From NCBI RefSeq assembly GCF_009834535.1, contig NC_045696.1:60018001-60082000 (forward strand): DNA of 64,000 nucleotides, given 5' to 3'. The notes beneath the pieces were generated by a model. It saw only the letters and a program-made list of their open reading frames with translations. It was not told the DNA's origin and made no database searches. Source of the stretch: Camelus ferus (lineage: Eukaryota). Position numbers and translations under genes: made by a program. Of this stretch, positions 1,220-59,387 are shown piece by piece (the first letter of the stretch is position 1; the number at the start of each line of letters is the position of its first letter).

Positions 1220-1234
1220 GGTGGGGCGCCCAGC

Positions 1235-16535: not shown

Positions 16536-16914
16536 CTAATAGTTGGGCGGTGGTGTACTAGCCTGGTCTGTATAGAGACTCTGTGGCTGACTGTCTTCGG
16601 AGAGGTTCAGCTTGACTCTAGGGAAGATGCTCCCATGTGCTCCGAGATTGAGGTTTCCATAGGGACCCTGTGGCTGACTGTCTTCAGAGAGGTTCAGCCT
16701 GACTCTGGGGAAGATGCTCCCATGTGCTCCGAGATTGAGGTTTGCATAGGGACCCTGTGGCTGACTGTCTTCAGAGAGGTTCAGACTGACTTTAGGGAAG
16801 ATGCTCCCATCTGCTCCGAGATTGCTAAAGCTGGTCATCTCCTGTAGTCTCAGATTTTGAAATTCATTCTCAACCAAGTTCTGTTCTTCCATATTCTTGC
16901 CTTTGATCTTTAAT
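16536..16914 (-). CDS. MUC13: MUC13 exon 11: cytoplasmic tail with triplicated 29-aa module and stop codon
   Basis: Acceptor gattacag|A at 16914; (R)LKIKGKNMEEQNLVENEFQNLRLQEMTSFSNLGADGSIFPKV... resembles the MUC13 tail; TAG stop at 16538-16536 directly followed by GTGAGT donor. Confidence 0.93.
16563..16823 (-). repeat. Coding tandem repeat, 3 x 87 bp (29 aa)
   Basis: ctgtggctgactgtcttc recurs at 16581, 16668 and 16755 (87-bp spacing). Confidence 0.95.
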
Positions 16915-18893: not shown

Positions 18894-18978
18894 CTTATCG
18901 AGAAGATGAATGCAGTCACTACACCGAGGATGAGGATGCCAGCAATGGTACCCACGATGGTGAGGATCAGCTGAAAAT
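18894..18978 (-). CDS. MUC13: MUC13 exon 10: transmembrane helix
   Basis: tttctctttcag| ... (N)FQLILTIVGTIAGILILGVVTAFIFSI(R) ... AG|GTATAG; 85 nt, phase 1 to 2. Confidence 0.95.
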
Positions 18979-20559: not shown

Positions 20560-20597
20560 TGTCTTTACAGCCAACTCCGCTGTAGCCAAATGCACAC
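20560..20597 (-). CDS. MUC13: MUC13 exon 9 (end of third EGF-like domain)
   Basis: tgtgtttcag| (P)CAFGYSGVGCKD(N) |GTGAGT; 38 nt, phase 2 to 1. Confidence 0.93.
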
Positions 20598-21451: not shown

Positions 21452-21581
21452 GGTTGACAGGCCCCGTGACTGTCCTCCCGGTAGCCCGGCAGGCACACGC
21501 AGTCCGCGCTCGTGCTGCTCCTCACTAAACATTGCCGCTTGTTCTCTGCGTTGCAGGTGTCATCGCAGGTTGGACCGAAGG
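21452..21581 (-). CDS. MUC13: MUC13 exon 8 (EGF-like)
   Basis: ctgttttgcag| (A)FGPTCDDTCNAENKRQCLVRSSTSADCVCLPGYREDSHGACQ(P) |GTAAGA; 130 nt, phase 1 to 2. Confidence 0.93.
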
Positions 21582-21910: not shown

Positions 21911-22036
21911 CGACACACATGGGGATCTGCGGGTTGGGCCTCACCAGCCCCTGTTTGCACTGACACAGTAAACCACTGGAGCAGTTGTCCTGGTCATTCT
22001 TCTTCTCACAACCATAGTAGTCACACCGGTCTTGCT
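21911..22036 (-). CDS. MUC13: MUC13 exon 7 (EGF-like)
   Basis: gcctctcag| (E)QDRCDYYGCEKKNDQDNCSSGLLCQCKQGLVRPNPQIPMCV |GTAAGG; 126 nt, phase 1 to 1. Confidence 0.93.
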
Positions 22037-25595: not shown

Positions 25596-25756
25596 CAGTA
25601 TATCCTGTAAAGACATCTGCATTGTCTTCAATTGCTTTTGTAATTGCATTAGATACTGTAGTCTCATTTAGTTCTGTAGTTTCCTTAAAGATGTTTACTA
25701 CTTCTATGTCAACATCCTTGTCACCAGCACGCAATTCAGATCTTGCTGCAGATGTC
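25596..25756 (-). CDS. MUC13: MUC13 exon 6 (SEA domain, C-terminal part)
   Basis: cagtcttag| (R)TSAARSELRAGDKDVDIEVVNIFKETTELNETTVSNAITKAIEDNADVFTGYT |GTAAGT; 161 nt, phase 2 to 1; an alternative in-frame AG lies 6 nt upstream. Confidence 0.9.
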
Positions 25757-28779: not shown

Positions 28780-28835
28780 CTTATTTTAACAATTACAGTC
28801 TGTCCGTAATCAGAATTGTTAAATGCCTTTTTAAA
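28780..28835 (-). CDS. MUC13: MUC13 exon 5 (SEA domain)
   Basis: ttttcctccacag| FKKAFNNSDYGQTVIVKI(R) |GTAAGT; 56 nt, phase 0 to 2. Confidence 0.92.
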
Positions 28836-32363: not shown

Positions 32364-32470
32364 AAATTCAGTAATTTCAAAATGTAATTTTTGATAGGCC
32401 ACAGAATTTTCATCTTTCAAGTCCTCTATATTTGATGTTTTGAATGTAATTGTACCAGGGAATATCTTTC
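32364..32470 (-). CDS. MUC13: MUC13 exon 4 (SEA domain, N-terminal part)
   Basis: gaatttcag| (G)KIFPGTITFKTSNIEDLKDENSVAYQKLHFEITEF |GTAAGT; 107 nt, phase 1 to 0. Confidence 0.93.
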
Positions 32471-33658: not shown

Positions 33659-33781
33659 CTTTACTGCATGTGGAAGAGTTATAGTATTGCCCTTCTGGAC
33701 ACAGGCAGAAAAATGTATCATTCAGACTCACACACGAAGAACCACCCTTACAGGAATCCTCTTGGCAAGGGTTGGTGGGAC
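33659..33781 (-). CDS. MUC13: MUC13 exon 3 (first EGF-like domain)
   Basis: ccattgcag| (G)PTNPCQEDSCKGGSSCVSLNDTFFCLCPEGQYYNSSTCSK |GTGAGT; 123 nt, six Cys, phase 1 to 1. Confidence 0.95.
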
Positions 33782-34699
33782 CTGCAATGGAGTAGAAAGA
33801 GATTAAAAATCCATAGATTGACAACAAATAACACTCAGAAACATACTTTTAAACCTTCATGCCTCCCTCCCAGGCACTTTCTGTTCGTTAGCTGTGTTAT
33901 TCCATGGTACCCTCTTAGAACAGCTAGAAACAAATACATATTTTCTTACGTCTCTAGGAAGTTTGTTGCTAAAATTCTGGAGCCAAGCGCTTGTCAACAG
34001 TAAAGGTCAGAGTCTGGTGGGTAAGAGTCTGCTCAGAGAGGGGTAGCAGCCTTCTAACTGCAAGGAGTACGGAAATATGTTGGACCTCAAGGATCCTCCA
34101 GAACCTTGACGTCTGGTCCTCCAGCACTAGGTAGGGCTCCCACAACCATTTTAGAGAAAGCATCGTATTTTTTCAGGAAGATGTGAATAGCTCAATTACA
34201 GGGAAGACCAGGCAGGACGCTCCAAAAAGAAGCTATTCTATTCTGGTTAGCATCATGGCATACAGACCCAGGAAGAAAGGAAAGGGATAGTAAGGGAACA
34301 ATGTGGATTAACTCAGTGAACATTCCAAGAGCAAGCAATGCGGGGACACTCCACCCTCTGGCTTTCTGAGTGGATGACCTGAATAAATGGTGAGAAGAAT
34401 GTTACAGTGGTCTCTGCACCACTGGCCAGGACTCCAAGACAAGGCCAGGTGCAGCATCCTTCCTATCTCTGTAGAACTGATGGGACCCGAGAAGGGAAGA
34501 TAGGTCACTGGCCAAACGGTGGTCTTGGCTAGCCACTTTCTTCATCTCTGTCCACTGAAATGATTCTGAGCTTTGATTTCAGAATAGATCATGTGACTGA
34601 CAACCTCCAGAGCTGTCTTAAGATTCACATGATCCTATAGGTGAAAATCACTGCTCTTAAGAAAAAGCTGTGTATAAGCTACAATGTGTACAACATGGT

Positions 34700-38219: not shown

Positions 38220-41200
38220 CTGTGGGACCAGGGTTTGGGCTGTTGGTCTCTGATGAAGTGCTGCTGCCCCAAGTCACTGAAGGAACAGTCCCTATGAAAT
38301 TACCTTTCGTGACAGTGGTGCCCGCAGCTACCGTGGTGGGAGGAGGAGGGCTCGATGCCGTGATGCCTGCAGCCGCCGTGGTGCTCTGAGCCCCTGTGGA
38401 GGAAGGAGGAGGGCTCGATGCCGTGGTGCCTTCAGCCGCTGTGGTGCTATGAGTCCATGTGGAGGAAGGAGGAGGGGGGGATGGCGTGGTGCTTGCAGCC
38501 GGCGTGGTGCTTGTAGCCGCCGTGGTGCTGTGAGCACCCGTGGAGGAAGGAGGAAGGCTCGATGCCGGGGTGCCTACAGCCGCCGTGGTGCTCTGAACCA
38601 CTGTGGAGGGAGAAGCAGGGCTCGATGCCGTGTTGCCTGCAGCCGCTGAGGTGCTCTGAGCCCCCGTGGAGGAAGGAGGAGGGCTCGATGCTGTGGTGCC
38701 TACAGCTGCCGTGCTGCTCTGAGCCACTGTGGAGGGAGTAGGAGAGCTCGATGCCGTGGTTGCCTGCAGCCGCCGTGGTGCTCTGAGACCCCGTGGAGGA
38801 AGGAGGAGGGCTCGATGCCATGGTGCCTGCAGCCGCCGTAGTGCTCTGAGCTCCCGTGGAGGAAGGAGGAGGGCTCGATGCCATGGTGCCTGCAGCCGCC
38901 GTAGTGCTCTGAGCCCCCGTGGAGGAAGGAGGAGGGCTCGATGCTGTGGTGCCTACAGCTGCCGTGCTGCTCTGAGCCACTGTGGAGGGAGTAGCAGGGC
39001 TTGTTGCCGTGGTAGCTGCAGCTGCCGTGGTGCTCTGAGCCACCGTGGAGGGAGTAGGAGAGCTTGATGAACTGGTGCCTGCAGCCGCCGAGGTGCTCTG
39101 AGCCCCCGTGGAGGGAGAAGGAGGGCTCGAAGCCGTGGTAGATGCAGCTGCCGTGGTGCTCTCAGCCCCCGTAGAGGAAGGAGGAGGGCTTGATGCAGTG
39201 GTGCTCTGAGTACCCGTGAAGGGTGTAGGTGGGCTCGAAGCCGTGGTGACTGCAGCCGCCGTGGTGTTAGGAGCCCCCGTGGAGGAAGGAGGAGGGCTCG
39301 ATGCTGTGGTGCCTACAGCCGCCGTGCTGCTCTGAGCCCCCGTGGAGGAAGGAGGAGGGCTCGATGCTGTGGTGCCTACAGCCGCCGTGCTGCTCTGAGC
39401 CACTGTGGAGGGAGTAGGAGGGCTCGATGCCGTGGTGCCTGCAGCCGCCGTGGTGCTCTGAGACCCCGTGGAGGAAGGAGGAGGGCTCGATGCCGTGGTG
39501 CCTGCAGCCGCCGTGGTGCTCTGAGCCACTGTGGAGGGAGTAGCAGGGCTTGATGCCGTGGTAGCTGCAGCTGCCGTGGTGCTCTGAGCCACCGTGGAGG
39601 GAGTAGGAGAGCTTGATGCCATGGTGCCTGCAGCCGCCGAGGTGCTCTGAGCCCCCGTGGAGGGAGAAGGAGGGCTCGATGCCGTGGTGGCTGCAGCCGC
39701 CGTGGTGCTCTGAGCCCCGGTAGAGGAAGGAGGAGGGCTTGATGCAGTGGTGCTCTGAGTACCCGTGGAGGGTGTAGGTGGGCTCGAAGCCATGGTGACT
39801 GCAGCTGCCGTGGTGCTAGGAGCCCCCGTGGAGGAATGAGGAAGGCTCGATGCCGTGGTGCCTACAGACGCCATGGTGGTCTGAGCCACCGTGGAGGGAG
39901 TAGCAGGGCTCGATGCCGTGTTACCTGCAGCCGCCGTGGTGCTCTGAGCCCCCGTGGAGGAAGGAGGAGAGCTCGATGCCAAGGTGCCTGCAGCCGCCGT
40001 GGTGCTCTGAGCCCCCGTGGAGGGAGTAGCAGGGCTCGATGCCGTGTTACCTGCAGCTGCTGTGGTGCTCTGAGCTGCTGTGGAGGGAGTAGGTGGGCTC
40101 GATGCCGTGGTGCCTTCAGCCGCCGTGGTGCTATGAGTCTCTGTGGAGGAAGGAGGAGGGCTTGATGGCGTGGTGCTTGCAGCCGCCGTGGTGCTGTGAG
40201 CACCCGTGGAGAAAGGAGGAGGGCTCGATGCCGTGGTGCCTGCAGCCGCCGTGGTGCTGTGAGCCATTGTGGAGGGAGTAACAGGGCTTGATGCCGTGGT
40301 GCCTGCAGCCGCCGTGGTGCTCTGAGCCACTGTGGAGGGAGTAGCAGGGCTTGATGCCGTGGTGCCTGCAGGCGCCGTGGTGCTCTGAGCCCCCGTAGAG
40401 GTAGGAGGAGGGCTTGATGCAGTGGTGCTCTGAGTACCCGTGGAGGGTGTAGGTGGGCTCGAAACCGTGGTGACTGCAGCCGCCGTGGTGCTCTGAGCCC
40501 CCGTGGAGGAAGGAGGAGGGCTTGATGCCATGGTGCCTGCAGCCGCCGTGGTGTTCTGAGCCCCCGTGGAGGAAGGAGGAGGGCTCGATGCCGTGGTGCC
40601 TACAGCCGCCGTGGTGCTCTGAGCCACTGTGGAGGGAGTAGCAGGGCTTGATTCCGTGGTAGCTGCAGCTGCCGTGGTGCTCTGAGCCACCGTGGAGGGA
40701 GTAGGAGAGCTTGATGCCGTGGTGCCTGCAGCCGCCGTGGTGCTCTGAGCCACTGTGGAGGGAGTAGCAGGGCTTGATGCCGTGGTGCCTGCAGGCACCG
40801 TGGTGCTCTGAGCCCCCGTAGAGGTAGGAGGAGGGCTAGATGCAGTGGTGCTCTGAGTACCCGTGGAGGGTGTAGGTGGGCTCGAAGTCGTGGTGACTGC
40901 AGCCGCCGTGGTGCTATGAGTCCCTGTGGAGGAAGGAGGAGGGCTGGATGGCGTGGTGCTTGCAGCCGCCGTGGTGCTGTGAGCACCCGTGGAGGAAGGA
41001 GGAAGGCTCGATGCCGTGGTGCCTTCAGCCGCCGTGGTGCTCTGAGCCACCGTGGAGGGAGTAGCAGGGCTCGATGCCGTGGTGCCTGCAGCCACCGTGG
41101 TGCTCTGAGCCACTGTGGAGGGAGTAGCAGGGCTTGATTCCGTGGTAGCTGCAGCTGCCGTGGTGCTCTGAGCCACCGTGGAGGGAGTAGGAGAGCTTGA

Positions 41201-44200
41201 TGCCGTGGTGCCTGCAGCCGCCGTGGTGCTCTGAGCCACTGTGGAGGGAGTAGCAGGGCTTGATGCCGTGGTGCCTGCAGGCGCCGTGGTGCTCTGAGCC
41301 CCCGTAGAGGAAGGAGGAGGGCTCGATGCCGTGGTGCCTGCAGCCGCCGTGGTGCTCTGAGCCACCATGGAGGGAGTAGCAGGGCTCGATGCCGTGGTGC
41401 CTGCAGCCACCGTGGTGCTCTGAGCCACTGTGGAGGGAGTAGCACGGCTTGATTCCGTGGTAGCTGCAGCTGCCGTGGTGCTCTGAGCCACCGTGGAGGG
41501 AGTAGGAGAGCTTGATGCCGTGGTGCCTGCAGCCGCCGTGGTGCTCTGAGCCACTGTGGAGGGAGTAGCAGGGCTTGATGCCGTGGTGCCTGCAGGCACC
41601 GTGGTGCTCTGAGCCCCCGTAGAGGTAGGAGGAGGGCTAGATGCAGTAGTGCTCTGAGTACCCGTGGAGGGTGTAGGTGGGCTCGAAGTCGTGGTGACTG
41701 CAGCCGCCGTGGTGCTATGAGTCCCTGTGGAGGAAGGAGGAGGGCTGGATGGCGTGGTGCTTGCAGCCGCCGTGGTGCTGTGAGCACCCGTGGAGGAAGG
41801 AGGAAGGCTCGATGCCATGGTGCCTTCAGCCGCCGTGGTGCTCTGAGCCACCGTGGAGGGAGTAGCAGGGCTCGATGCCGTGGTGCCTGCAGCCACCGTG
41901 GTGCTCTGAGCCCCCGTGGAGGAAGGAGGAGGGCTTGATGCCGTGGTGCCTACAGCCGCCGTGGTGCTCTGAGCCACTGTGGAGGGAGTAGGAGTGCTCG
42001 ATGCCGTGGTGCCTGCAGCCGCCGTGGTGCTCTCAGCCCCCGTAGAGGAAGGAGGAGGGCTTGATGCAGTGGTGCTCTGAGTACCCGTGGAGGGTGTAGG
42101 TGGGCTCGAAGCCGTGGTGCCTACAGCCGCCGTGGTGCTCTGAGCCACTGTGGAGGGAGTAGCAGGGCTTGATGCCGTGGTAGCTGCAGCTGCCGTGGTG
42201 CTCTGAGCCACCGTGGAGGGAGTAGAGGAGCTTGATGCCGTGGTGTCTGCAGCCGCCGAGGTGCTCTGAGCCCCCGTGGAGGGAGTAGCAGGGCTCGATG
42301 CCGTGGTGGCTGCAGCCGCCGTGGTGCTCTGAGCCCCCGTGGAGGGAGTAGCAGGGCTCGATGCCGTGGTACCTGCAGCTGTGGTGGTGCTCTGAGCCGC
42401 TGTGGAGGGAGTAGGTGGGCTCGATGCCGTGGTGCCTGCAGCCGACGTGGTGCTCTGAGCCACTGTGGAGGGAGTAGCAGGGCTTGATGCCGTGGTGCCT
42501 GCAGCCGCCGTGGTGCTCTGAGCCACTGTGGAGGGAGTAGCAGGGCTTGATGCCGTGGTGCCTGTAGGCGCCGTGGTGCTCTGAGCCCCCGTAGAGGAAG
42601 GAGGAGGGCTTGATGAAGTGGTGCTCTGAGTACCCGTGTAGGGTGTAGGTGGGCTCGAAACCGTGGTGACTGTAGCCGCCGTGGTGCTCTGAGCACCCGT
42701 GGAGGAAGGAGGAGGGCTCGATGCTGTGGTGCCTGCAGCCGCCGTGGTGTTCTGAGCCCCCGTGGAGGAAGGAGGAGGGCTCGATGCCGTGGTGCCTACA
42801 GCCGCCGTGGTGCTCTGAGCCACTGTGGAGGGAGTAGCAGGGCTTGATTCCGTGGTAGCTGCAGCTGCCGTGGTGCTCTGAGCCACCGTGGAGGGAGTAT
42901 GAGAGCTTGATGCCGTGGTGCCTGCAGCCGCCGAGGTGCTCTGAGCCCCCGTGGAGGGAGAAGGAGGGCTCAATGCCGTGGTGGCTGCAGCCGCCGTGGT
43001 GCTATGAGCCCCCGTAGAGGAAGGAGGAGGGCTTGATGCAGTGGTGCTCTGAGTACCCGTGGAGGGTGTAGGTGGGCTCGAAGCCGTGGTGACTGCAGCC
43101 GCAGTGGTGCTATGAGTTCCTGTGGAGGAAGGAGGAGGGCTGGATGGCGTGGTGCTTGCAGCCGCCGTGGTGCTGTGAGCACCCGGGGAGGAAGGAGGAA
43201 GGCTCAATGCCGTGGTGCCTACAGCCGCCGTGGTGCTCTGAGCCACCGTGGAGGGAGTAGCAGGGCTTGATCCCGTGGTGCCTGCAGCCGCCGTGGTGCT
43301 CTGAGCCCCCGTGGAGGAAGGAGGAGGGCTCGATGCCGTGGTGCCTACAGCCGCCGTGGTGCTCTGAGCCACCGTGGAGGGAGTAGCAGGGCTTGATGCC
43401 GTGGTGCCTGCAGCCGCCGTGGTGCTCTGAGCCCCCGTGGAGGAATGAGGAGGGCTCGATGCCGTGGTGCCTGCAGCCGCCGTGGTGCCCTGAACCCCCG
43501 TGGAGGAAGGAGGAGTGCTCGATGCCGTGGTGCCTGCAGCCGCCGTGGTGCTCTGAGCCCCCGTGGAGGAATGAGGAGGGCTCGATGCCGTGGTGCCTGC
43601 AGCCGCCGTGGTGCTCTGAGCCACTGTGGAGGGAGTAGCATGGCTTGATGCCGTGGTGCCTGCAGCCGCCGTGGTGCTCTGAGCCCCCGTAGAGGAAGGA
43701 GGAGGGCTTGATGCAGTGGTGCTCTGAGTACCCGTGGAGGGTGTAGGTGGGCTCGAAGCCGTGGTGACTGCAGCTGGCGTGGTGCTAGGAGCCCCCGTTG
43801 AGGAATGAGGAAGGCTCGATGCCGTGGTGCCTACAGCCTCCGTGGTGCTCTGAACCACTGTGGAGGGAGTAGCAGAGCTCGATGCCGTGTTGCCTGCAGC
43901 CGCCGTGGTGCTCTGAGCCACTGTGAAGGGAGTAGCAGGGCTTGATGTCATGGTGCCTGCAGCCGCTGTGGTGCTCTGAGCCCCCGTGGAGGAAGGAGAA
44001 GGGCTCGATGCCGTGGTGCCTGTAGCCGCCGTGGTGCTCTGAAAGCCCGTGGAGGAAGGAGGATGGCTCGATGCCGTGGTGCCTGCAGCCGCCGTGGTGC
44101 TCTGAGCCCCCGTGGAGGAAGGAGGAGGGCTCGATGCCGTGGTGCCTGTAGCCGCCGTGGTGCCCTGAACCCCCGTGGAGGAAGGAGGAGGGCTCGATGC

Positions 44201-47200
44201 TGAGGTGCCTACAGCCGCAGTGGTGCTGTGAGCCCCCGTGAAGGGAGTAGCAGGGCTCGATGCCGTGGTACCTGCCGCCGCAGTGGTGCTCTGAGCCACT
44301 GTGGAGGGAGTAGCACGGCTTGATGCCGTTGTAGCTGCAGCTGCCGTGGTGCTCTGAGCCACTGTGGAGGGAGTAGCAGGGCTTGATGCCGTGGTGCCTG
44401 CAGCCGCCGTGGTGCTCTGAGCCCCCGTAGAGGACGGAGGAGGGCTTGATGCAGTGGTGCTCTGAGTACCCGTGGAGGGTGTACGTGGGCTCGAAGCCGT
44501 GGTGACTGCAGCTGGCGTGGTGCTAGGAGCCCCCGTGGAGGAATGAGGAAGGCTCGATGCCGTGGTGCCTACAGCCTCCGTGGTGCTCTGAACCACTGTG
44601 GAGGGAGTAGCAGAGCTCGATGCCGTGTTGCCTGCAGCCGCCGTGGTGCTCTGAGCCACTGTGGAGGGAGTAGGAGAGCTTGATGCCGTGGTGCCTGCAG
44701 CCGCCGAAGTGCTCTGAGCCGCCGTGTTGCTCTCAGCCGCCGTGGAGGGAGTAGGAGAGCTTGATACCATGGTGCCTGCAGCCGCCGTGGTGCTCTGAGC
44801 CACTGTGGAGGGAGTAGCAGGGCTTGATGCCGTGGTGCCTGCAGCCGCCGTGGTGCTCTGAGCCCCCGTAGAGGTAGGAGGAGGGCTAGATGCAGTGGTG
44901 CTCTGAGTACCAGTGGAGGGTGTAGGTGGGCTCGAAACCGTAGTGACTGCAGACGCCGTGGTGCTAGGAGCCCCCATGGAGGAATGAGGAAGGCTCGATG
45001 CCGTGGTGCCTACAGCTGCCGTGGTGCTCTGAACCACTGCGGAGTGAGTAGCAGGGCTCGATGCCGTGTTGCCTGCAGCCACCGTGGTGCTCTGAGCCAC
45101 TGTGGAGGGAGTAGCAGGGCTTGATGCCGAGGTGCCTGCAGCCGCCGTGGTGCTCTGAACCCCCGTGAAGGAAGGAGGAAGGTTCGATGCTGTGGTGCCT
45201 GCAGCCGCTGTGGTGCTCTGAGCCCCCGTGGAGGAAGGAGGAGGGCTCGATGCTGTGGTGCCTACAGCCGCCGTGCTGCTCTGAGCGACTGTGGAGGGAG
45301 TAGGAGTGCTCGTTGCCGCGGTGCCTGCAGCCGCCGTGGTGCTCTGAGCCCCCGTGGAGGAAGGAGGAGGGCTCGATGCCGTGGTGCCTGCAGCCGCCGA
45401 GGTGCTCTGAGCCGCCGTGTTGCTCTGAACCGCCGTGGAGGGAGTAGGAGAGCTTGATGCCGTGGTGCCTGCAGCCGCCGTGGTGCTCTGAGCCACTGTG
45501 TAGGGAGTAGCAGGGCTTGATGCCGTGGTGCCTGCAGCCGCCGTGGTGCTCTGAGCCCCCGTAGAGGTAGGAGGAGGGCTTGATGCAGTGGTGCTCTGAG
45601 TACCCGTGGAGGGTGTAGGTGGGCTCGAAACCGTGGTGACTGCAGCCGCCGTGGTGCTAGGAGCCCCCGTGGAGGAAGGAGGAGAGCTCGATGCCGAGGT
45701 GCCAGCAGCCGCCGTGGTGCTCTGAGCCCCCGTGGAGGGAGTAGCAGGGCTCGATGCCGTGGTACCTGCAGCCGCCGTGGTGCTCTGAGCCCCCGTGGAG
45801 GAATGAGGAGAGCTCGATGCCGAGGTGCCAGCAGCCGCCGAGGTGCTCTGAGCGCCCGTAGAGGATGGAGGAGAGGTTGATGCAGTGGTGCTCTGAGTCC
45901 CCGTTGAGGAAAGAGGAGGGCTCGATACCGTGGTGCCTGCAATCACCGTGGTGCTGTGCACACCCGTGGAGGAAGGAGGAACGCTCGATGCCGTGGTGTC
46001 TGCAGCGGCCGTGGTGCTCTGAGCCACAGTGGAGGGAGTAGCAGGGCTCGATGCCGTGTTGCCTGGAGCCGCCGTGGTGCTCTGAGCTCCCGTGGTGGAA
46101 GGAGGAGGTCTCGATGCCGTGGTGCCTGCAGCCGCCGTGGTGCTCTTTGCCACAGTGGAGGAAGGAGGAGGGCTCGATGCCGTGGTGACTGTAGTCGCCG
46201 TGGTCCTCTGAGCTTCCGTGGAGGAAGGAGGAGGGCTCGATGCCGTGGTGCCTACAGACTTCGTGGTGCTCTGAGCCACTGTGGAGGGAGTAGCAGGGCT
46301 CGATGCAGTGGTAGCTGCAGCTGCGGTGGTGCTCTGATCCGCCGTGGAGGGAGTAGGAGAGCTTGATGCCGTGGTGCCTGTAGCCACCGTGGTGCTGTGA
46401 GCACCCGTGGAGGAAGGAGGAACGCTCGATGCCGTGGTGTTTGCAGCGGCCGTGGTGCTCTGAGCCCCCGTGGAGGAATGAGGAGAGCTCGATGCCGAGG
46501 TGCCTGCAGCTGCCGTGGTGCTCTGAACCACTGCGGAGGGAGTAGCAGGGCTCGATGCCGTGTTGCCTGCAGCCGCCGTGGTGCTGTGAGCCTCCGTGGA
46601 GGGAGTAGCAGGGCTCGATGCCGTGGTGCCTGCAGCCGCCGAGGTGCTCTGAGCGCCCGTAGAGGATGGAGGAGAGGTTGATGCAGTGGTGCTCTGAGTC
46701 CCCGTTGAGGAAAGAGGAGGGCTCGATACCGTGGTGCCTGCAATCACCGTGGTGCTGTGCGCACCCGTGGAGGAAGGAGGAACGCTCGATGCCGTGGTGT
46801 CTGCAGCGGCCGTGGTGCTCTGAGCCACAGTGGAGGGAGTAGCAGGGCTCGATGCCGTGTTGCCTGGAGCCGCCGTGGTGCTCTGAGCTCCCGTGGTGGA
46901 AGGAGGAGGTCTCGATGCCGTGGTGCCTGCAGCCGCCGTGGTGCTCTTTGCCACAGTGGAGGAAGGAGGAGGGCTCGATGCCGTGGTGACTGTAGTCGCC
47001 GTGGTCCTCTGAGCTTCCGTGGAGGAAGGAGGAGGGCTCGATGCCGTGGTGCCTACAGACTTCGTGGTGCTCTGAGCCACTGTGGAGGGAGTAGCAGGGC
47101 TCGATGCAGTGGTAGCTGCAGCTGCGGTGGTGCTCTGATCCGCCGTGGAGGGAGTAGGAGAGCTTGATGCCATGGTGCCTGTAGCCACCGTGGTGCTGTG

Positions 47201-50200
47201 AGCACCCGTGGAGGAAGGAGGTACGCTCGATGCCGTGGTGTTTGCAGCGGCCGTGGTGCTCTGAGCCACCGTGGAGGGAGTAGCAGGGCTCGATGCCGTG
47301 GTACCTGCAGCCGCCGTGGTGCTCTGAGCCCCCGTGGAGAAATGAGGAGAGCTCGATGCCGAGGTGCCTGCAGCTGCCGTGGTGCTCTGAACCACTGCGG
47401 AGGGAGTAGCAGGGCTCGATGCCGTGTTGCCTGCAGCCGCCGTGGTGCTGTGAGCCTCCGTGGAGGGAGTAGCAGGGCTCGATGCCGTGGTGCCTGCAGC
47501 CGCCGAGGTGCTCTGAGCGCCCGTAGAGGATGGAGGAGAGGTTGATGCAGTGGTGCTCTGAGTCCCCGTTGAGGAAAGAGGAGGGCTCGATACCGTGGTG
47601 CCTGCAATCACCGTGGTGCTGTGCGCACCCGTGGAGGAAGGAGGAACGCTCGATGCCGTGGTGTCTGCAGCGGCCGTGGTGCTCTGAGCCACAGTGGAGG
47701 GAGTAGCAGGGCTCGATGCCGTGGTGCCTGGAGCCGCCGTGGTGCTCTGAGCTCCCGTGGTGGAAGGAGGAGGGCTCGATGCCGTGGTGCCTGCAGCCGC
47801 CGTGGTGCTCTTTGCCACAGTGGAGGAAGGAGGAGGGCTCGATGCCGTGGTGACTGTAGTCGCCGTGGTCCTCTGAGCTTCCGTGGAGGAAGGAGGAGGG
47901 CTCGATGCCGTGGTGCCTACAGACTTCGTGGTGCTCTGAGCCACTGTGGAGGGAGTAGCAGGGCTCGATGCAGTGGTAGCTGCAGCTGCGGTGGTGCTCT
48001 GATCCGCCGTGGAGGGAGTAGGAGAGCTTAATGCCGTGGTGCCTGCAGCCACTGTGGTGCTCTTAGCCCCCGTAGAGGATGGAGAAGGGGTTGATGTAGT
48101 GGTGCTCTGAGTACCCGTGGAGGGAGTAGCAGGGCTCGATGCCGTGGTGCCTGCAGCCGCCGTGGTGCTCTGAGCCCCCGTAGAGGAAGGAGGAGGGCTC
48201 GATGCCGTGGTGCCTGCAGCCGCCGAGGTGCTCTGAGCGCCCGTAGAGGATGGAGGAGAGGTTGATGCAGTGGTGCTCTGAGTCCCCGTTGAGGAAAGAG
48301 GAGGGCTCGATACCGTGGTGCCTGCAATCACCGTGGTGCTGTGCGCACCCGTGGAGGAAGGAGGAACGCTCGATGCCGTGGTGTCTGCAGCGGCCGTGGT
48401 GCTCTGAGCCACAGTGGAGGGAGTAGCAGGGCTCGATGCCGTGTTGCCTGGAGCCGCCGTGGTGCTCTGAGCTCCCGTGGTGGAAGGAGGAGGTCTCGAT
48501 GCCGTGGTGCCTGCAGCCGCCGTGGTGCTCTTTGCCACAGTGGAGGAAGGAGGAGGGCTCGATGCCGTGGTGACTGTAGTCGCCGTGGTCCTCTGAGCTT
48601 CCGTGGAGGAAGGAGGAGGGCTCGATGCCGTGGTGCCTACAGACTTCGTGGTGCTCTGAGCCACTGTGGAGGGAGTAGCAGGGCTCGATGCAGTGGTAGC
48701 TGCAGCTGCGGTGGTGCTCTGATCCGCCGTGGAGGGAGTAGGAGAGCTTGATGCCATGGTGCCTGCAGCCACTGTGGTGCTCTTAGCCCCCGTAGAGGAT
48801 GGAGAAGGGGTTGATGTAGTGGTGCTCTGAGTACCCGTGGAGGGAGTAGCAGGGCTCGATGCCGTGGTGCCTGCAGCCGCCGTGGTGCTCTGAGCCCCCG
48901 TAGAGGAAGGAGGAGGGCTCGATGCCGTGGTGCCTGTAGCCACCGTGGTGCTGTGAGCACCCGTGGAGGAAGGAGGAACGCTCGATGCCGTGGTGTTTGC
49001 AGCGGCCGTGGTGCTCTGAGCCACCGTGGAGGGAGTAGCAGGGCTCGATGCCGTGGTACCTGCAGCCGCCGTGGTGCTCTGAGCCCCCGTGGAGGAATGA
49101 GGAGAGCTCGATGCCGAGGTGCCTGCAGCTGCCGTGGTGCTCTGAACCACTGCGGAGGGAGTAGCAGGGCTCGATGCCGTGTTGCCTGCAGCCGCCGTGG
49201 TGCTGTGAGCCTCCGTGGAGGGAGTAGCAGGGCTCGATGCCGTGGTGCCTGCAGCCGCCGAGGTGCTCTGAGCGCCCGTAGAGGATGGAGGAGAGGTTGA
49301 TGCAGTGGTGCTCTGAGTCCCCGTTGAGGAAAGAGGAGGGCTCGATACCGTGGTGCCTGCAATCACCGTGGTGCTGTGCGCACCCGTGGAGGAAGGAGGA
49401 ACGCTCGATGCCGTGGTGTCTGCAGCGGCCGTGGTGCTCTGAGCCACAGTGGAGGGAGTAGCAGGGCTCGATGCCGTGTTGCCTGGAGCCGCCGTGGTGC
49501 TCTGAGCTCCCGTGGTGGAAGGAGGAGGTCTCGATGCCGTGGTGCCTGCAGCCGCCGTGGTGCTCTTTGCCACAGTGGAGGAAGGAGGAGGGCTCGATGC
49601 CGTGGTGACTGTAGTCGCCGTGGTCCTCTGAGCTTCCGTGGAGGAAGGAGGAGGGCTCGATGCCGTGGTGCCTACAGACTTCGTGGTGCTCTGAGCCACT
49701 GTGGAGGGAGTAGCAGGGCTCGATGCAGTGGTAGCTGCAGCTGCGGTGGTGCTCTGATCCGCCGTGGAGGGAGTAGGAGAGCTTGATGCCATGGTGCCTG
49801 CAGCCACTGTGGTGCTCTTAGCCCCCGTAGAGGATGGAGAAGGGGTTGATGTAGTGGTGCTCTGAGTACCCGTGGAGGGAGTAGCAGGGCTCGATGCCGT
49901 GGTGCCTGCAGCCGCCGTGGTGCTCTGAGCCCCCGTAGAGGAAGGAGGAGGGCTCGATGCCGTGGTGCCTGTAGCCACCGTGGTGCTGTGAGCACCCGTG
50001 GAGGAAGGAGGAACGCTCGATGCCGTGGTGTTTGCAGCGGCCGTGGTGCTCTGAGCCACCGTGGAGGGAGTAGCAGGGCTCGATGCCGTGGTACCTGCAG
50101 CCGCCATGGTGCTCTGAGCCCCCGTGGCGGAATGAGGAGAGCTCGATGCCGAGGTGCCTGCAGCTGCCGTGGTGCTCTGAACCACTGCGGAGGGAGTAGC

Positions 50201-51531
50201 AGGGCTCGATGCCGTGTTGCCTGCAGCCGCCGTGGTGCTGTGAGCCTCCGTGGAGGGAGTAGCAGGGCTCGATGCCGTGGTGCCTGCAGCCGCCGAGGTG
50301 CTCTGAGCGCCCGTAGAGGATGGAGGAGAGGTTGATGCAGTGGTGCTCTGAGTCCCCGTTGAGGAAAGAGGAGGGCTCGATACCGTGGTGCCTGCAATCA
50401 CCGTGGTGCTGTGCGCACCCGTGGAGGAAGGAGGAACGCTCGATGCCGTGGTGTCTGCAGCGGCCGTGGTGCTCTGAGCCACAGTGGAGGGAGTAGCAGG
50501 GCTCGATGCCGTGTTGCCTGGAGCCGCCGTGGTGCTCTGAGCTCCCGTGGTGGAAGGAGGAGGTCTCGATGCCGTGGTGCCTGCAGCCGCCGTGGTGCTC
50601 TTTGCCACAGTGGAGGAAGGAGGAGGGCTCGATGCCGTGGTGACTGTAGTCGCCGTGGTCCTCTGAGCTTCCGTGGAGGAAGGAGGAGGGCTCGATGCCG
50701 TGGTGCCTACAGACTTCGTGGTGCTCTGAGCCACTGTGGAGGGAGTAGCAGGGCTCGATGCAGTGGTAGCTGCAGCTGCGGTGGTGCTCTGATCCGCCGT
50801 GGAGGGAGTAGGAGAGCTTGATGCCATGGTGCCTGCAGCCACTGTGGTGCTCTTAGCCCCCGTAGAGGATGGAGAAGGGGTTGATGTAGTGGTGCTCTGA
50901 GTACCCGTGGAGGGAGTAGCAGGGCTCGATGCCGTGGTGCCTGCAGCCGCCGTGGTGCTCTGAGCCCCCGTAGAGGAAGGAGGAGGGCTCGATGCCGTGG
51001 TGCCTGTAGCCACCGTGGTGCTGTGAGCACCCGTGGAGGAAGGAGGAACGCTCGATGCCGTGGTGTTTGCAGCGGCCGTGGTGCTCTGAGCCACCGTGGA
51101 GGGAGTAGCAGGGCTCGATGCCGTGTTGCCTGCAGCCGCCGTGGTGCTCTTTGCCACCGTGGAGGGAGGAGGAGGGCTCGATGCCGTGGTGCCCGCAGCC
51201 CCCGTGGTGGGAGGAGGAGGGCTCGATGCCGTGGTGCCCGCAGCCCCCGTGGTGGGAGGAGGAGGGCTTGATGCTGTGGTGCCCGCAGCCCCCGTGGAGG
51301 GAGGAGGGCTCGATGCTGTGGTGCCGGCACCCCCTTTGGAGGGAGGAGGAGGGCTTGATGCCGTGGTGCCGGCAGCCCCCGTGGTGGGAGGAGGCGGGCT
51401 CGATGACGTGGTGCTGGCAGCCCCCGTGGAAGAAGGAGGAGTGTTTGATGTTGAATTGCCTGCAGCCCCTGTGGAAGAAGGAGGGATTGATGTGGTGAGG
51501 CTTGTAGCAATTATGGTGGGAGGTCTATTCG
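38220..51531 (-). CDS. MUC13: MUC13 exon 2: giant PTS mucin domain (about 4,437 codons), with one +1 frameshift at about 38760 in this sequence
   Basis: Acceptor tttgttcctccag|CG at 51531 is in phase with exon 1; 4374-aa ORF 38447-51571 plus ORF 38215-38727 carrying the repeat end; phase-1 donor CAG|GTTAAG at 38220 (alternative AAG|GTAATT at 38304); length 13312 = 3n+1. Confidence 0.9.
38320..51500 (-). repeat. Coding VNTR of 63-bp (21-aa, TTAAAGTTASSPPPSSTGAQS-like) and 45-bp (15-aa) units in higher-order blocks
   Basis: Read directly; near-identical out-of-frame ORFs recur at 45956, 46757, 47621, 48341, 49376, 50411 and at 40916, 41717. Confidence 0.97.
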
Positions 51532-51675
51532 CTGGAGGAACAAAGATATCAAGTTTTAGAAGACAAAACATTGAATATATAATAGCAGCTGCTATTATTT
51601 AAAACGAATTAGTACCTAATGTATTCTTTTCTGAAAAATAAGTATCGTGTACTACATTAAAAATAAAAAATATAT

Positions 51676-54600
51676 GGAGGTTAGAGGTCAAGGTGGTGGA
51701 GTAGTAGGACCCGGAGCTCACCTCTCCTCCTGACTACAACAAAACCACAACTGTCTGCTAAACAACCATCAAAAAAATAAACCAACAAAACAAAATGAAA
51801 CAAAACAAAAAAACTGGGACCTAGCAAAAAAGATATTTCAACTGGAAACATAAAGATGGAACCACAGTGGAACGGCATGAAGGGTGTGATCACAATGTAA
51901 TCGGGCCAAAGCCCCACTGGGGTGGGCGACCTACAAGCTGAAGAACAATTAAGTTGCAGGGCCCCTCCCACAGGAGTGAGAGTTCTGAGCCCCATGTCAG
52001 GCTCCCCAGCCTGAGGTCCTGGCATTGGGAGGAGGAGACCTAAGGACATCTGGTTTTGAAGACTAGCAGGACTTAGCTCCAGGAGCCCCACAGGACGGGG
52101 TGAAACAGAGGCAGTGATTTCATACAAACCTGGGCCAGACCTGCCTACTGGTTTGGAGGGTCTCCTGGGGACATAGGGGATGGCTGTGGCTCACCCTGGG
52201 GCCATGAAATCTGGTGGCAGACATTCTGGGAGTGTTCATCTACGTGAGCTTTCCCAGAGGCTGACATCTTGCTTGGGACATTAGCACCAAGACCTAGCCC
52301 CGGCAAACAGCCTAAAGGCTTAAGTGCTGGGAAGCCTCAGGCCAAACAGCATACTGGGTGGGAACACAGCCCAACCCATCAGCAGACTTCCTGAGCCTTG
52401 AACCCCCCTCTAGACACGACCCTAGAGATGGCCCTACCCACAGAGGACCAGGACCAAGCCTCACCCAGCATTGGACAGGCACTAACTCCTCCTGCCAGGA
52501 AACCTGCATAAGGCTCTAGTCCAGCCTCACCCACCAGGGGGAAGAAGATATCAGAAATAAGAAAACAACAATCCCAAAGCCTGTGGAAGGAATCCACAAA
52601 CACAGGCCAGATTCTACCCTGGGACTGGCTGGACCCTGGCCCTTGGGTGACAAGAGAAGAGTGTACTGCTGGGATGCATAGGACATTTCCCACAGAAAGC
52701 CAATTCTCCAAGGTCAAAAAATATAACTAAACTACCAAAAAATACAAATAGAAAGATAGTATGAGGCAGCAGAGAAATATCTTTGAGGCTAAAACACAAG
52801 ATAATAAAATTCCAGAAGAAGATATTAGTGATGATGAGATAGACAATCTATCCAAGAAAGAGTTTAGAGTAATGATGGTGAAGATGTTTAGAGAACTTAG
52901 AAGGAGTATAGATGCACAGGGGGAAGTTTTTAGCAAAGAGTTAGAAAATATAAAGAATGCCCAAAGAGAGTGGAAGAATAAAATCACTGAAATGAATAAC
53001 ACACTAGAAGGAACCAAGAATACGACTAAATGAGACAGAAGAACAAATCAGTGAGCTAGAAGACAGATTAGTGGAATTCACTACTGTAGAACAGAAAAAA
53101 GAAAAAAAGAATGAAAAGAAATGATAGTTTAAGAGAAGTCTAGGACAACATGAAGAGCACTAATATTCACATTATGGGGGGTCCCAAAAAGATGAGAGAG
53201 AGATAAAGAATCTGAGAATATATTCCAAGAGATAATAGGCCCAAACTTCCCTGACTTGGGAAAGGAAACTGTTAGCCAAGTCCAGGAAGCACAGAGAGTT
53301 CCATACAGAATTAATCCAAAGAGGAGCACACCAAGGCACATAGCAATCAAACTGACAAAATTAAAATCAGCAAGAGAAAAGCAACAAATAACATACAAGG
53401 GAACTCCTATAAGGTTATCAGCTGATTTTTCAGCAGAAATGCTACAGGCCAGAAGGGAGTGGCACAATATATTTAAAGTGATGAAAGGGGAAAACTTACA
53501 ACCAAGAACACTCTATCTAGCAGGGCTCTCATTCAGATTTTATGGAGAAATCAAAACCTTCTCAGATAAACAAAAGCTAAAAGAATTCAGCACCACCAAA
53601 CCAGCTTTACAACAAATGTTAAAGGAATTTCTCTAGTTATCAACCCACAAGGAAAAAGAAGAAAAAGAAGAAAGAAAGAAAGAAACTAAGAAAAAGGACC
53701 TACAAAAACAAACCCAGAACAATTAACAAAATGGCAATAAGAACATACGTATCAATAACTACCTTAACTGTAAATGGATTAAACACACCAACCAAAATAC
53801 ATAGACTGGCTGAGTGGATACAAAACAAGACCCATATATATGCTGTCTACAAGAGACCCACTTCAGAGCTAGGACACATGCAGGCTGAAAGGCAATGGAA
53901 AAAGAGATTCCATGCAAATGGAAACCAAAAGAAAGCTCAAGTAGCAATACATCTATCAGACAAAATAGATTTTAAAATAAAGACTGTTACAAGAGACAAA
54001 CAAGGGTACTACATAATGCTCAAGGGATCAATCCAAGAAAAAGATATAACAATTGTAAATACATATGCACCCAACATAGGAGCACCTCAGTATCTAAGGC
54101 AACTATTAACAGATATAAAAGGAGAAATTGGCAATAAAACAATAGTGGGGGACCTTACCACCTCACTTACATCAGTGGACAGATCATCCAGATAGAAAAT
54201 CAATAAGGAAATATGGGCCTTAAATGACACATTAGACCAGAGGGACTTAATTGTTATCTGTAGAGGATTCCATCCAAAAGCGACAGGATATACATTCTTC
54301 TCAAGCACACATGAAACATTCTCCAGAACTGACCACATGCTGGCCCACAAAGCAAGCCTCGGTAAATTTTAGAGAACTGAAATCATACCAAGCATCTTTT
54401 CCGACCACCATGCTATGAGGTTAGAGATCAACTATAAGAAAAAAAAAAAAAAAAAAAAACAAACCCCAAAACCTGCAAAAACTGCAAACACGTGGAGGCT
54501 GAAAACAATATGCTACTAAACAACCAATGGATCACTGAAGAAATTAAAGGAGAAAACAAAAAATACCTTGAGACAAATGAAAATGAAAACACAATGATCC

Positions 54601-57600
54601 AAAACCTCTGGGATGCAGCAAAAGTAGTTCTAAGAAGGAAGTTTATAGCGATAAAAGCTTACCTCAGGAAACAAGAAAAATCTCAAGTAAACAACCTAAC
54701 CTTACACGTAAAGCAGGTAGAGAAAGAAGAACAAACAAAATTCAAAGTTAGTAGAAGGAAAAAAGATTAGAGCAGAAATAAATGAAATAGAGACTAAAAA
54801 AACAATAGACAAGATCAATAAAACTAAAACATGGTTCTTTGAAAAAATAAATGAAGTTGATAAACCTTTGGTCAAACTCATCAAGAAAAAAAGGGAAAGG
54901 GCCCAAATTAACAAAATCAGAAATGAAGAAGGAGAAGTTACAATTGACACCACAGAAATATAAGGGATCAAAAGAGGCTACTATGAGCAACTATATGCCA
55001 ACAAAAAAGGACAACCTAGAAGAAATGGATAATTTCCTAGAAAGGTACAATTTGCTAAGACTGAACCAAGAAAAAATGGGAAATATAACTAGACCAATTA
55101 TCAGTTCTGAAATTGAATCAGCAATTTAAAAAAGTCCCAACAAACAGAAGTTTGGGAGCAGATGGCTTCACAGGTGAATTCTACCAAACATTTAGAGAAG
55201 AGTTAACACCTATCCTTCTGAAACTATTCCAAAAAATTGCAGAGGAAGGAACACTTCCAAACTCATTCTATGAGGCCATCATCACCCTGATTACCAAAAC
55301 CAAAGATATCACACAAAAAGAAAATTATAGGCTAATATCATTTATGAAGATAGATGCAAAAACCCTGAACAAAATACTAGCAAATCATCTCCAATGATGC
55401 ATTGAAAGGATCATACACCATGATCAAATGGGATTTATTCCAAGGATGCAAGGATTTTTCAATATCCGTGAATCAATCAGTATGATACACCACATTAACA
55501 AATTCAAGAATCAAAACCATATGATCATCTCAATAGACGCAGAAAAAGTTTTTAATAAAATTCCACATCCATTTATAATGAAAACTTTCCAGAAAGTGGG
55601 CATAGATGAAGCATACCTCAACTTAATAAAGGCCATATATGACAAGCCCACAGCTAACATCATACTTAATGGGAAAAGCTCAAAGCATTTCCTCTAGGAT
55701 CAGGAACAAGACAAGGATGCCCCCTCTCACCACTTTGATTCAACATAGTTTTGGAAGTCCTAGCACTTACAATCAGAGAAGAAAAAGAAATAAAAGGAAT
55801 CCAAATTGGAAATGAAGATGTAAAACTATCAGTGTTTGCAGATGACATGATACGATACATAGAAAACTCCAAAGAAGTGACCAGAAAACTACTAGAACTC
55901 CTCAATGAATTTGGTAAAGTTGCAGGATAAAAAATTAATACACAGAAATAAGTTGCATTTCTATACACTAATAACAAAATAGCAGAAAAAGGAATTAAGG
56001 AAACACTATCATTTGCCATCATACCAAAAAAAACAAAAAAAAAAAAAAAACCTAGGAATAAACCTACTCAGGGAGGTAAAAGATCTGGACTCAGAAAAAT
56101 ATGACACTGATGAAAGAAACTGAAGATGACATAAACAAATGGAAAGATATACCATGTTCTTGGATTGGAAGAATCAACATTGTTAAAATGGCCATACTAC
56201 CCAAGGCAAGACACAGATTCAATGCAATCCCTATCAAATTACCAATGATATTTTTCACAGAGCTGGGACAAAAAAATGTTAAGATTTGTATGGAAACACA
56301 AAAGACCCCAAATAGCCAAAACAATCTTGAAAAGGAAGAATGGAGCTGACGGAATCACACTCCCTGGCTTCAGGCTATACTACAAAGCTACAGTAATCAA
56401 AGCAGTATGGTACTGGCACAAAAACAGACACATAGATCAATTGAACATGATAGATAGTCCAGAAATAAACCCACACACTTATGGTCAATTAATCTACAAC
56501 AAGGGAGACAAGAATACACAATGGAGAAAAGATAGTCTCTTCAACAAGTGGTGCTGGGAAAACTGGACAACTACCTGTAAAAGATTGAAATTAGATCTCT
56601 AATGCCATATACAAAAATAAACTCAGAATGGATTAAAGATCTAAATATAAGACCAGATACTACAAAACTCCTAGAGGAAAACACAGGCAGAACACTCTTG
56701 GACATAAATTACAGCAATGTATTTTTTGAACCAGCTCCTAGAGTAATGGAAATAAAAGCAAAAATAAACATATGTGATCTAATTAAACTTAAAAGCTTTT
56801 GCACAGCCAAGGATACCATCAACAAAATGAAAAGATAACCTACAGAATGGGAGGAAATATTTGTAAATGATCTGACCAAGAAGGGACTAATTTCCAAAAT
56901 ACACAAACAGCTCATACAGCTTAATATCAAAAAAACAAGCAACCCAATTGAAAAAAAAATAGGCAGAAGACCTAACGGACATCTCTCCAAGAAGACATCC
57001 AGATGGCCAACAAACACATGAAAAGATGCTCAACATCACCAATTGTTAGAGAAATGCAAATCAAAACTACAGTGTGATATCACCTCACACAGGTCAGAAT
57101 GGCCATCAAGAAGTCTACAAATGAACACAACATTGTAAAATGATTATAAATCAATAAAAAATGTTAAAAAAAAAGAAGAAGTCTACAAATGATAAATGCT
57201 GGAGAAGGTGTGGAGAAAAGGAACCCTCCTACACTGTTGGTGGGAATGTAAATTGGTTTAGCCACTATGGGGGGTAGTATGGAAATTCCTTAAAAACTAA
57301 AAATAGACTTACCATATGATCCAGCAATCCTGCTCCTGGGCAAATATCCAGAGAAAACTCTAATTCAAAAAGACACATGCACCCCAATGTTCACAGCAGC
57401 ACTATTTACAATAGCCAAGACATGGAAACAACCCAAATGTCCATCAACAGATGGCTGGATAAAGAAGCGGTGGTATATTTATACAATGGAATACTACTTG
57501 GCAGTAAAAAAGAATGAAATAATGCTATTTGCAGCAATATGGATGAAACTGGAGAATGTCCTTTTAAGTGAAATAAGTAAGAAAGAGAAAGAAAAATACC

Positions 57601-57983
57601 ATATGATGTCACTTACATGTGGAATCTAAAAAAAAAAACAAACAAACAAACTTATTTACAAAACAGAAACAGACTCACAGACATAGAAAACAAACTTACG
57701 GTTGCTGGGGCGGGAAGAGTGTGGGAAGGTGTAAATTGGGAGTTTGAGATTTGCCGTCACTAATATATATAAAATAGATAAACAACAAGTTTATACTGTA
57801 TAACACAGGGAACCATATTCGATATCTTGTAACCTATGGTGAAAAAGAATATGAGAACAAAACTATGTATGTTCCTATGTGACTGAAGAATTGTGCTGTT
57901 TGCCAGAAACTGACACGATATTGTAAACTGACTGTACTTCAATGAAAATACATTACAAAAAAATACAATAAACAACAAAAAAA
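51676..57983 (+). mobile_element. Near full-length, inactivated L1 (about 6.3 kb) in MUC13 intron 1, antisense to the gene
   Basis: 5'UTR, ORF1 pieces 52761-53636 (RLSADFSAE), ORF2 pieces 53731-57629 (endonuclease start MAIRTYVSITTL.VNGLN, RT-region FADDM, C-terminal), 3'UTR and A-rich tail; many stops and frameshifts. Confidence 0.95.
57125..57175 (+). mobile_element. 51-bp L1 3'-tail insertion nested in the older L1
   Basis: acacaacattgtaaaatgattataaatcaataaaaaatgttaaaaaaaaag flanked by a perfect 17-bp TSD aagaagtctacaaatga (57108-57124, 57176-57192). Confidence 0.85.
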
Positions 57984-58155
57984 TTTAACAGACAAAACTG
58001 CAAAAGTTAATATGTATCTTATTCAGTTATATATTAATTCTATTATGGTAATGTGACATATAATTAATATGGAATCCATCATTTATGCCTGCGGTTGCAG
58101 AACTATCAGTGTGAGTTTAATACTCCTCAGAGCAGTTCTCTCTGACAACTAGAAA

Positions 58156-59335: not shown

Positions 59336-59387
59336 CTGAGATTAGAAAAAGGAGGGCAGGCAGAGTGAGGTGACTGAAGGCTTTCAT
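59336..59387 (-). CDS. MUC13: MUC13 coding exon 1 (signal peptide)
   Basis: ATG at 59387; MKAFSHLTLPALLFLIS; 52 nt then CAG|GTAAGG donor, phase 1. Confidence 0.93.

Follow-up and report, generated by a model that had tools for sequence, protein, structure and literature searches.

Can a gene of the MUC13 type carry a single intact mucin-domain exon of 13.3 kb, and if so, how does it stand to the ordinary gene? The question is raised by a stretch of 64,000 nucleotides (nt) of Camelus ferus DNA (assembly GCF_009834535.1, contig NC_045696.1, positions 60,018,001 to 60,082,000), referred to here as the window, in which a very long exon rich in proline, threonine and serine (PTS) lies on the minus strand. 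We lean towards the reading that this exon encodes the mucin domain of a camelid MUC13 paralog, a domain grown to MUC17 size in an intact gene for 4,855 amino acids (aa).

Boundaries and Repeat Structure of the Giant Exon

Exon 2 ran from window position 51531 to 38220 and measured 13,312 nt. This size had been given in an earlier note on the same DNA and was borne out, since both splice sites were found at the ends: an acceptor AG at 51533-51532 with a pyrimidine tract ahead of it, and a donor GT at 38219-38218. The guanine-cytosine (GC) content was 0.63-0.66 within the array and 0.34-0.51 around it, and the open frame was composed of 25.5% T, 22.7% S, 20.4% A and 11.9% P. The exon and its parts, with periods from Tandem Repeats Finder (TRF), were as follows.

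38220..51531, minus strand: exon 2, the PTS (mucin-domain) exon, 4,436 aa with 2,164 Ser+Thr and 540 Pro once one base is dropped
51138..51484, minus strand: 5' sub-array of 45-nt (15-aa) units of type GTTASSPPPPTTGAA, TRF period 45, 7.8 copies
38333..51209, minus strand: main array of 63-nt (21-aa) units with consensus SSPPTPSTGAQSTTAAAGTTA, from TRF and unit alignment
38220..38332, minus strand: non-repeat 3' end of exon 2 (..TVTKGNFIGTVPSVTWGSSTSSETNSPNPGPT)

Over 36-54 kb of the window, TRF returned 141 rows, mostly of period 63 with sub-periods of 18, 45, 81, 108 and 144, and one row (38707-51209) described the array at period 486 with 25.5 copies. The spacing of units in the main array was exactly 63 nt in 104 cases, and variants of 45, 81, 108 and 126 nt were also present. 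The GTTASSPPPPTTGAA type of the 5' sub-array is the sole unit type in exon 2 of a second copy of the gene, called copy B below. In its downstream part, the non-repeat 3' end was similar to SSITSSENSTPKPSTTG of rhino MUC13. Another donor in phase, AAAG/GTAATT, lies 84 nt upstream of the exon 2 end and is the one taken by the public 626-aa model of this gene.

Gene Model and Family Identity

MUC13 proteins from the databases, found via the tail exon, served as tblastn queries to place the exons other than exon 2, and all ten of these exons were bounded by AG/GT. They are listed in coding order, exon 2 (13,312 nt) standing between the first and second lines.

59336..59387, minus strand: exon 1, start codon and signal peptide (MKAFSHLTLPALLFLIS), 52 nt, donor CAG/GTAAGG
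33659..33781, minus strand: exon 3, EGF-like module 1, 123 nt; hEGF E 9.6e-4, below the cut-off
32364..32470, minus strand: exon 4, start of the SEA domain, 107 nt; also from Pfam on spliced proteins
28780..28835, minus strand: exon 5, SEA domain (FKKAFNNSDYGQTVIVKI), 56 nt
25596..25756, minus strand: exon 6, SEA domain, 161 nt; the acceptor of the public model lies 6 nt upstream
21911..22036, minus strand: exon 7, EGF-like module 2, 126 nt
21452..21581, minus strand: exon 8, EGF-like module 3, 130 nt
20560..20597, minus strand: exon 9 (CAFGYSGVGCKD), 38 nt
18894..18978, minus strand: exon 10, transmembrane helix (FQLILTIVGTIAGILILGVVTAFIF), 85 nt; helix read directly
16536..16914, minus strand: exon 11, cytoplasmic tail and stop codon, 379 nt including the stop

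Exon 1 ends in phase 1, and exon 2 carries on in that phase with 48% T+S and 12% P. When the eleven exons were chained and one base near 38760 was dropped, the coding sequence was 14,568 nt or 4,855 aa, reproducing exactly the figures previously proposed. The order encoded was signal peptide, PTS, EGF, SEA, EGF, EGF, transmembrane (TM) helix and tail. Pfam searches with single-exon open reading frames (ORFs) gave EGF-type matches below threshold only and did not find SEA. With the spliced public model (P0001), SEA was found at E 2.1e-5 and 25.0 bits, just under the cut-off of 26.4, and with an alpaca mucin-13-like protein (P0002) at 27.1 bits and E 4.6e-6. A protein search with the tail exon gave five matches, named or unnamed. 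The window gene was 62% identical to named MUC13-type proteins of seal and goat, the range across named MUC13 proteins being 41-62%. The membership of the MUC13 family claimed for this gene is thus upheld by the domain order, by this identity and by the adjoining HEG1.

Exon 11 contained 2.9 tandem copies of an 87-nt (29-aa) unit, NLGA[DH]GSIFP[KR]V..LNLSEDSQPQGPY, at 16572-16824 with 93% matching. One copy of the unit is present in the alpaca mucin-13-like protein, and copy B and dromedary mucin-13 have the ordinary single motif. Because the relatives have a single unit against 2.9 here, the signalling tail of the window paralog was also expanded.

Comparison with Known Mucins

According to PMC10984281, human MUC13 is relatively small for a TM mucin, and its SEA domain is accompanied by three EGF-like domains and a signalling tail; PMC13345508 gives it no variable number tandem repeat exon in CHM13. 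The window gene resembles MUC13 of human and most mammals in exon order and domain order (PMC10984281) and in having HEG1 as neighbour. It differs from the usual MUC13 in its 13.3-kb PTS exon, in being one of two or three copies, and in its diverged TM helix and tail.

The closest precedent for a long PTS exon is the pig. According to the accessible portion of PMC3440394, the PTS region of pig MUC13 measured 3-5 kb on Southern blots, was polymorphic and was linked to enterotoxigenic Escherichia coli (ETEC) F4ac, in agreement with what the earlier note had stated of pig MUC13. The same portion describes a 12-exon gene with the repeat in exon 2, not resolvable by short reads and reported as single copy; the F4 locus was later placed proximal to MUC13 (PMC4138166, in part). 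The camel gene is like pig MUC13A and MUC13B, also from an artiodactyl, in that exon 2 of MUC13 bears a PTS region with several kb of tandem repeats. However, the pig units described there are 8-9 aa long (ASTSAPSA/ASTSAPAAG, TPTPTTTP) in a single-copy gene, while the camel array has the 21-aa unit SSPPTPSTGAQSTTAAAGTTA in a duplicated gene (PMC3440394, same portion). The camel array is not built of units of the pig type. Since both the repeat units and the copy state differ, the pig and camel expansions look independent, and the camel array is an event of the pig kind carried to three to four times the extent, in a gene that is itself a duplicate.

The available part of PMC13643018 gives MUC17 a PTS domain of 4,073 aa with about 12% P, 23% S and 26% T, forming a bottle-brush of up to about 1 μm. 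The PTS region in the window, of 4,436 aa with 11.9% P, 22.7% S and 25.5% T, is alike in size and composition and is likewise followed by SEA/EGF modules, a TM helix and a tail (PMC13643018, same part). Placement in the giant size class of MUC3, MUC12 and MUC17 therefore stood as regards size and composition; the gene itself is a paralog of MUC13. It differs from MUC3, MUC12 and MUC17 in lineage and locus, with MUC13-type C-terminal exons, three EGF-like modules and HEG1 as neighbour. The same C-terminal exons and the adjoining HEG1 do not agree with descent from the MUC3/MUC12/MUC17 cluster, so the resemblance to MUC17 would be one of working principle and not of membership. HEG1-like records and MUC13 have the C-terminal EGF-TM part in common, and HEG1 is the adjoining gene; unlike the window gene, the long family hits in the databases (1,084-1,997 aa) came from other vertebrates and a cephalopod and were either HEG1-like or uncharacterised, and none was MUC13.

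Copies of the Gene in the Assembly

Copies were sought in the window's own assembly, with coordinates given on the contig that holds the window (C1). A unique 2.5-kb piece (window 31500-34000) was present three times, at 100, 99 and 99% identity. The notion that MUC13 itself, as the only copy, has become giant did not hold, as there are three copies in the assembly and a conventional one is retained.

Copy B, at C1:60125346-60162751, matched window 11085-61659 at 93.7-99.2%, with an offset of 83-96 kb between the two copies. Its exon 2 was about 0.85 kb long and in frame, was made of 15-aa units TTASSPPPPTTGAAG, and started and ended as the window exon does; the 12.8 kb at window 38381-51138 were replaced by 288 nt. 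The two copies differed mostly by substitutions (257 mismatches versus 49 gap openings in 12.8 kb). In exon 10, which encodes the TM helix, 22 of 125 positions differed, and DNA identity over the exon was 82%. The tail of copy B was intact and of the usual mammalian type. The tail of dromedary mucin-13 (XP_064333069.1, 461 aa) was 98% identical to that of copy B and 63% identical to that of the window gene. The prevalence of substitutions, the diverged TM exon and the dromedary-like tail argue that copy B is a real gene and not a false duplicate. Because dromedary mucin-13 corresponds to copy B, the giant gene is the paralog. With three copies and a diverged tail and TM helix, the window gene is not a one-to-one ortholog of human MUC13.

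In dromedary mucin-13, the opening 24 residues of the model (MSASGKAHVDEHSQNVCHKISWPQ) mapped to 52196-52267 on the minus strand, in intron 1 about 650 nt upstream of exon 2, and also to the matching place in copy B; they may represent an alternative first exon or an artefact of the model. In intron 4, at window 29437-29612, there was a 17-nt minisatellite of 10.4 copies with 98% matching, and the alignments between copies break here (29459/29590).

On the human map, MUC13 lies between ITGB5 and HEG1. In the camel, HEG1-type tail exons were found twice, at C1:60191258-60194185 upstream of copy B and at C1:60114011-60115954 between the MUC13 copies, 78 kb apart, and both were 80-92% identical to an alligator HEG1-like record. 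The copy adjoining the whole HEG1 is copy B. Since the HEG1 tail is duplicated between the MUC13 copies, the duplicated segment comprised both MUC13 and the 3' end of HEG1, and the HEG1 fragment in between is probably a dead remnant of this tandem duplication. The alpaca records comprise a mucin-13 and a mucin-13-like protein, the latter with the window-type TM helix and tail and one 29-aa tail unit, which suggests a duplication older than the divergence of Old World from New World camelids.

The third copy, copy A, was located at C1:64024320-64053413, 4 Mb from the cluster, and its placement and quality look doubtful. It had an array of at least 4.76 kb of the window unit type, which is cut off by a gap. 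It is somewhat unlikely that this copy is the MUC13 cluster assembled a second time or put in the wrong place, which would leave a family of two members instead of three. Such an origin agrees with the form of copy A, a 29-kb piece between two 100-N gaps, with its identity of 98.6-99.6% to the window copy (exons 3, 5, 9 and 10 being identical), and with an excess of gap openings relative to mismatches (53 versus 128, and 4 versus 2). However, the introns diverged from those of the window copy by about 0.9% in substitutions, and the array end, which is in frame, aligned at only 83% to the window with length differences of 18 and 19 nt. These features look more like those of a paralog than of a second haplotype.

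The Frame Break near Position 38760

An uninterrupted frame from start to tail was not found in the gene as assembled and was restored by dropping one base near 38760. The frame set by exon 1 was open for 4,360 codons of exon 2 and then ran off-frame (…AAAGNHGIELSYSLH…), while the PTS reading resumed in another frame from the break to the end of the exon. The open frame from stop to stop, 38447..51598, comprised 4,383 codons. The two features that define the break were the following.

38750..38767, minus strand: frameshift site, GCAGGCAACCACGGCATC, one occurrence
38447..38449, minus strand: premature stop codon in the shifted frame

GCAGGCAACCACGGCATC exceeds by one base both GCAGGCACCACGGCATC, with 46 in-frame copies, and GCAGGCAACACGGCATC, with nine, and the 31-mers spanning the site were unique in the window. 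Spacings between repeat anchors ranged from 42 to 207 nt and were multiples of three in 167 of 168 cases; the sole exception, 64 nt, was the frameshift unit. Upstream of the shift, all 4,255 codons of the PTS frame were free of stops, against 32 and 27 stops in the two remaining sense frames. About 13 stops were expected in the PTS frame when scaled by the single-substitution paths to a stop (530 versus 947 and 1,513), a figure that is approximate because the duplicated blocks are not independent. With no stop against about 13 expected, the frame of the array is kept open by selection, and the break must therefore be either very recent or an error.

Single-base length changes were also present elsewhere in the gene copies. 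Copy A had such changes in exons 7, 8 and 11, mostly in short homopolymers, and copy B had one in exon 8. Apart from these changes, the exons concerned agreed between copies at 97.7-100%, and in the dromedary protein the reading of exon 8 is unbroken. Were all of these indels real, this animal would be left without an unbroken copy of MUC13, so consensus errors in the duplicated region are likelier. The extra base near 38760 is, in our view, probably an assembly error of this kind. Given an error-bearing duplicated region, one consensus indel error in 13.3 kb is then unremarkable. The arithmetic of the proposed 4,855-aa protein was exact; its existence depends on one assembly base being wrong, the product being truncated otherwise.

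We consider it unlikely that the extra base is real. The product would then be a PTS polypeptide of about 4,377 aa, secreted without an anchor and ending in an off-frame tail, or the mRNA would be lost to nonsense-mediated decay, and the gene would be a recently disabled paralog. The base is present in the assembly, the public gene model needed four small introns within the array to skirt the break, and the retained copy B could make the loss of the window gene tolerable. On the other hand, the unit is the only one out of phase among 168 spacings, the frame upstream is free of stops and the ten other exons are intact, so a real loss would have to be very recent, with one defect and all else intact. 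The single-base indels of copies A and B likewise point to consensus errors in this duplicated region.

Length of the Array

The following feature was found by a diagonal scan.

45831..51125, minus strand: higher-order repeat blocks, 5.3 kb, 99.2-100% mutually identical

The near-identical blocks measured 503-1,897 nt at lags of 720-4,455 nt (including 720, 801, 864 and 1035), and three tandem 1035-nt copies differed by 2 mismatches in 1,897 nt. This stretch is either a very recent expansion or the likeliest place of a miscount by the assembler. Outside it there was one further near-identical pair, 40609-41111 and 41410-41912 (503 nt, 99.4%). The other approximately 7.5 kb of the array were diverged, with an identity of 71-88% at the 63-nt lag, and because of this divergence they are not a copy-number artefact of identical units. 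Exon 2 is therefore multi-kb in any case, and we estimate at least about 9 kb after collapsing the near-identical blocks to one copy. That the assembler over-expanded the array, perhaps by copying one block repeatedly in 45831-51125, and that the true exon is much shorter is improbable: the three nearly equal 1035-nt blocks, the further blocks of 503-1,044 nt at 99.2-100% identity and the imperfect assembly nearby, with gaps around copy A and exon indels, would allow it, but the approximately 7.5 kb of diverged units and the approximately 9 kb left after full collapse do not fit it, and copy A independently carries units of this type over at least 4.76 kb, in a different sequence order.

Public Annotation and Database Precedent

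The closest protein match to the window gene was XP_032337379.1 (mucin-13-like, Camelus ferus, 626 aa), the public model mentioned above. It matched the window at 100% in 14 pieces, starting at an internal Met at 39874, and crossed the array with four GT-AG or GC-AG introns of 360, 179, 193 and 172 nt into and out of the off-frame. The public annotation of the gene thus misses about 4,200 residues. The model was also considered as an independent witness of the extra base and was rejected as such, since every piece and every small intron fits this DNA exactly and the contig recorded for it has the length of C1, 122,453,268.

Within the range of 638-2,000 aa, eight relatives of the alpaca protein were found, measuring 642-1,078 aa; mucin-13 of grey seal, squirrel and koala was among them. 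The annotated MUC13 proteins retrieved had 320-859 aa. The pig records among them (320-546 aa) are without their known PTS region, so annotated lengths understate the real ones. Five of the best 150 of 255 family hits were longer than 1,078 aa; two were HEG-like by name (one via a cluster member), and the other three, from quail, fish and octopod, were called hypothetical or uncharacterized, with none named MUC13. A full-text literature search, largely outside which subscription journals lie, found no paper on a camelid MUC13 or a MUC13 duplicate.

Several results speak against an intact giant gene. As assembled, the frame from exon 1 stops at 38449, giving a product without EGF, SEA and TM parts. 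The 5.3 kb of near-identical blocks leave the exact length of the array open to mis-assembly. Codon-position diversity was flat among 104 units (0.146, 0.123 and 0.146), so constraint is apparent for frame and composition only and not for residues. The only public model describes the same DNA and so adds no independent support. The giant ORF had no match in a set of 5.8 billion proteins, among 1,450 scored candidates of 2,398-7,630 aa, a weak null result that the handling of biased composition by HMMER may explain. In a representative library of 1.84 billion proteins, the longest of the best 150 of 255 family hits had 1,997 aa, so these searches gave no annotated precedent.

Proposed Origin and Significance

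Weighing these points, we still incline to an intact, MUC17-sized paralog, and the following course of events would account for it. A segment with MUC13 and the last HEG1 exons is found twice in tandem. The 63-nt unit may have arisen from the 45-nt unit by an internal duplication of 18 nt (AAGTTA beside AQSTTA) and would then have spread by unequal exchange, most recently as higher-order blocks of 0.7-1.0 kb. With the extra base near 38760 taken as an assembly error, the product would be a type I membrane protein of 4,855 aa with a rod of about 4,400 aa, predicted to be densely O-glycosylated, with about 2,160 Ser/Thr. By analogy with MUC17, it could form a tall glycocalyx or a pathogen-decoy layer on the gut epithelium, and copy B would keep the ordinary role of a short MUC13. 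A bolder version, which we put forward as tentative, is that camelids made a new glycocalyx mucin of the MUC17 class from MUC13: a tandem duplication would have freed one copy, in which a 21-aa unit derived from the ancestral 15-aa unit multiplied about fifteen-fold and gave a rod measuring about 4,400 aa and about 1 μm, the anchor and tail remodelled together with it, and the ordinary MUC13 kept next door. The array may still be growing, as the 1-kb blocks are 99-100% identical.

The height and chemistry of the coat on gut cells depend on membrane mucins, which also serve as decoys or receptors for pathogens. In pigs, susceptibility to ETEC F4ac diarrhoea is tied to the repeat region of MUC13 (PMC3440394). 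If the proposed origin is true, a long and a short MUC13 side by side would offer a natural paired test of mucin length alone. The locus would also be a clear case of a mucin function enlarged by duplication and repeat expansion, and would show, in datable steps, how a giant barrier mucin came from a small signalling one. Livestock annotations badly understate mucin repertoires, since the 626-aa model bypasses the break and the pig records omit the PTS region.

Other Features of the Window

Intron 8 contained a low-complexity tract rich in TGG/TGA triplets at window 21078-21273, outside the gene model, with runs of His, Thr and Pro in minus-strand frames. At window 1-2000, the GC content was 0.68 and two overlapping open frames of 327 and 329 codons were present on the plus strand; neither had a Pfam match. 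This region may be the CpG-island promoter of the next gene, which by the human gene order would be ITGB5. In intron 1, window 52000-58000 had an AT skew of 0.34-0.36, a GC content of 0.34 and long open stretches on the minus strand, as are typical of an old long interspersed nuclear element.

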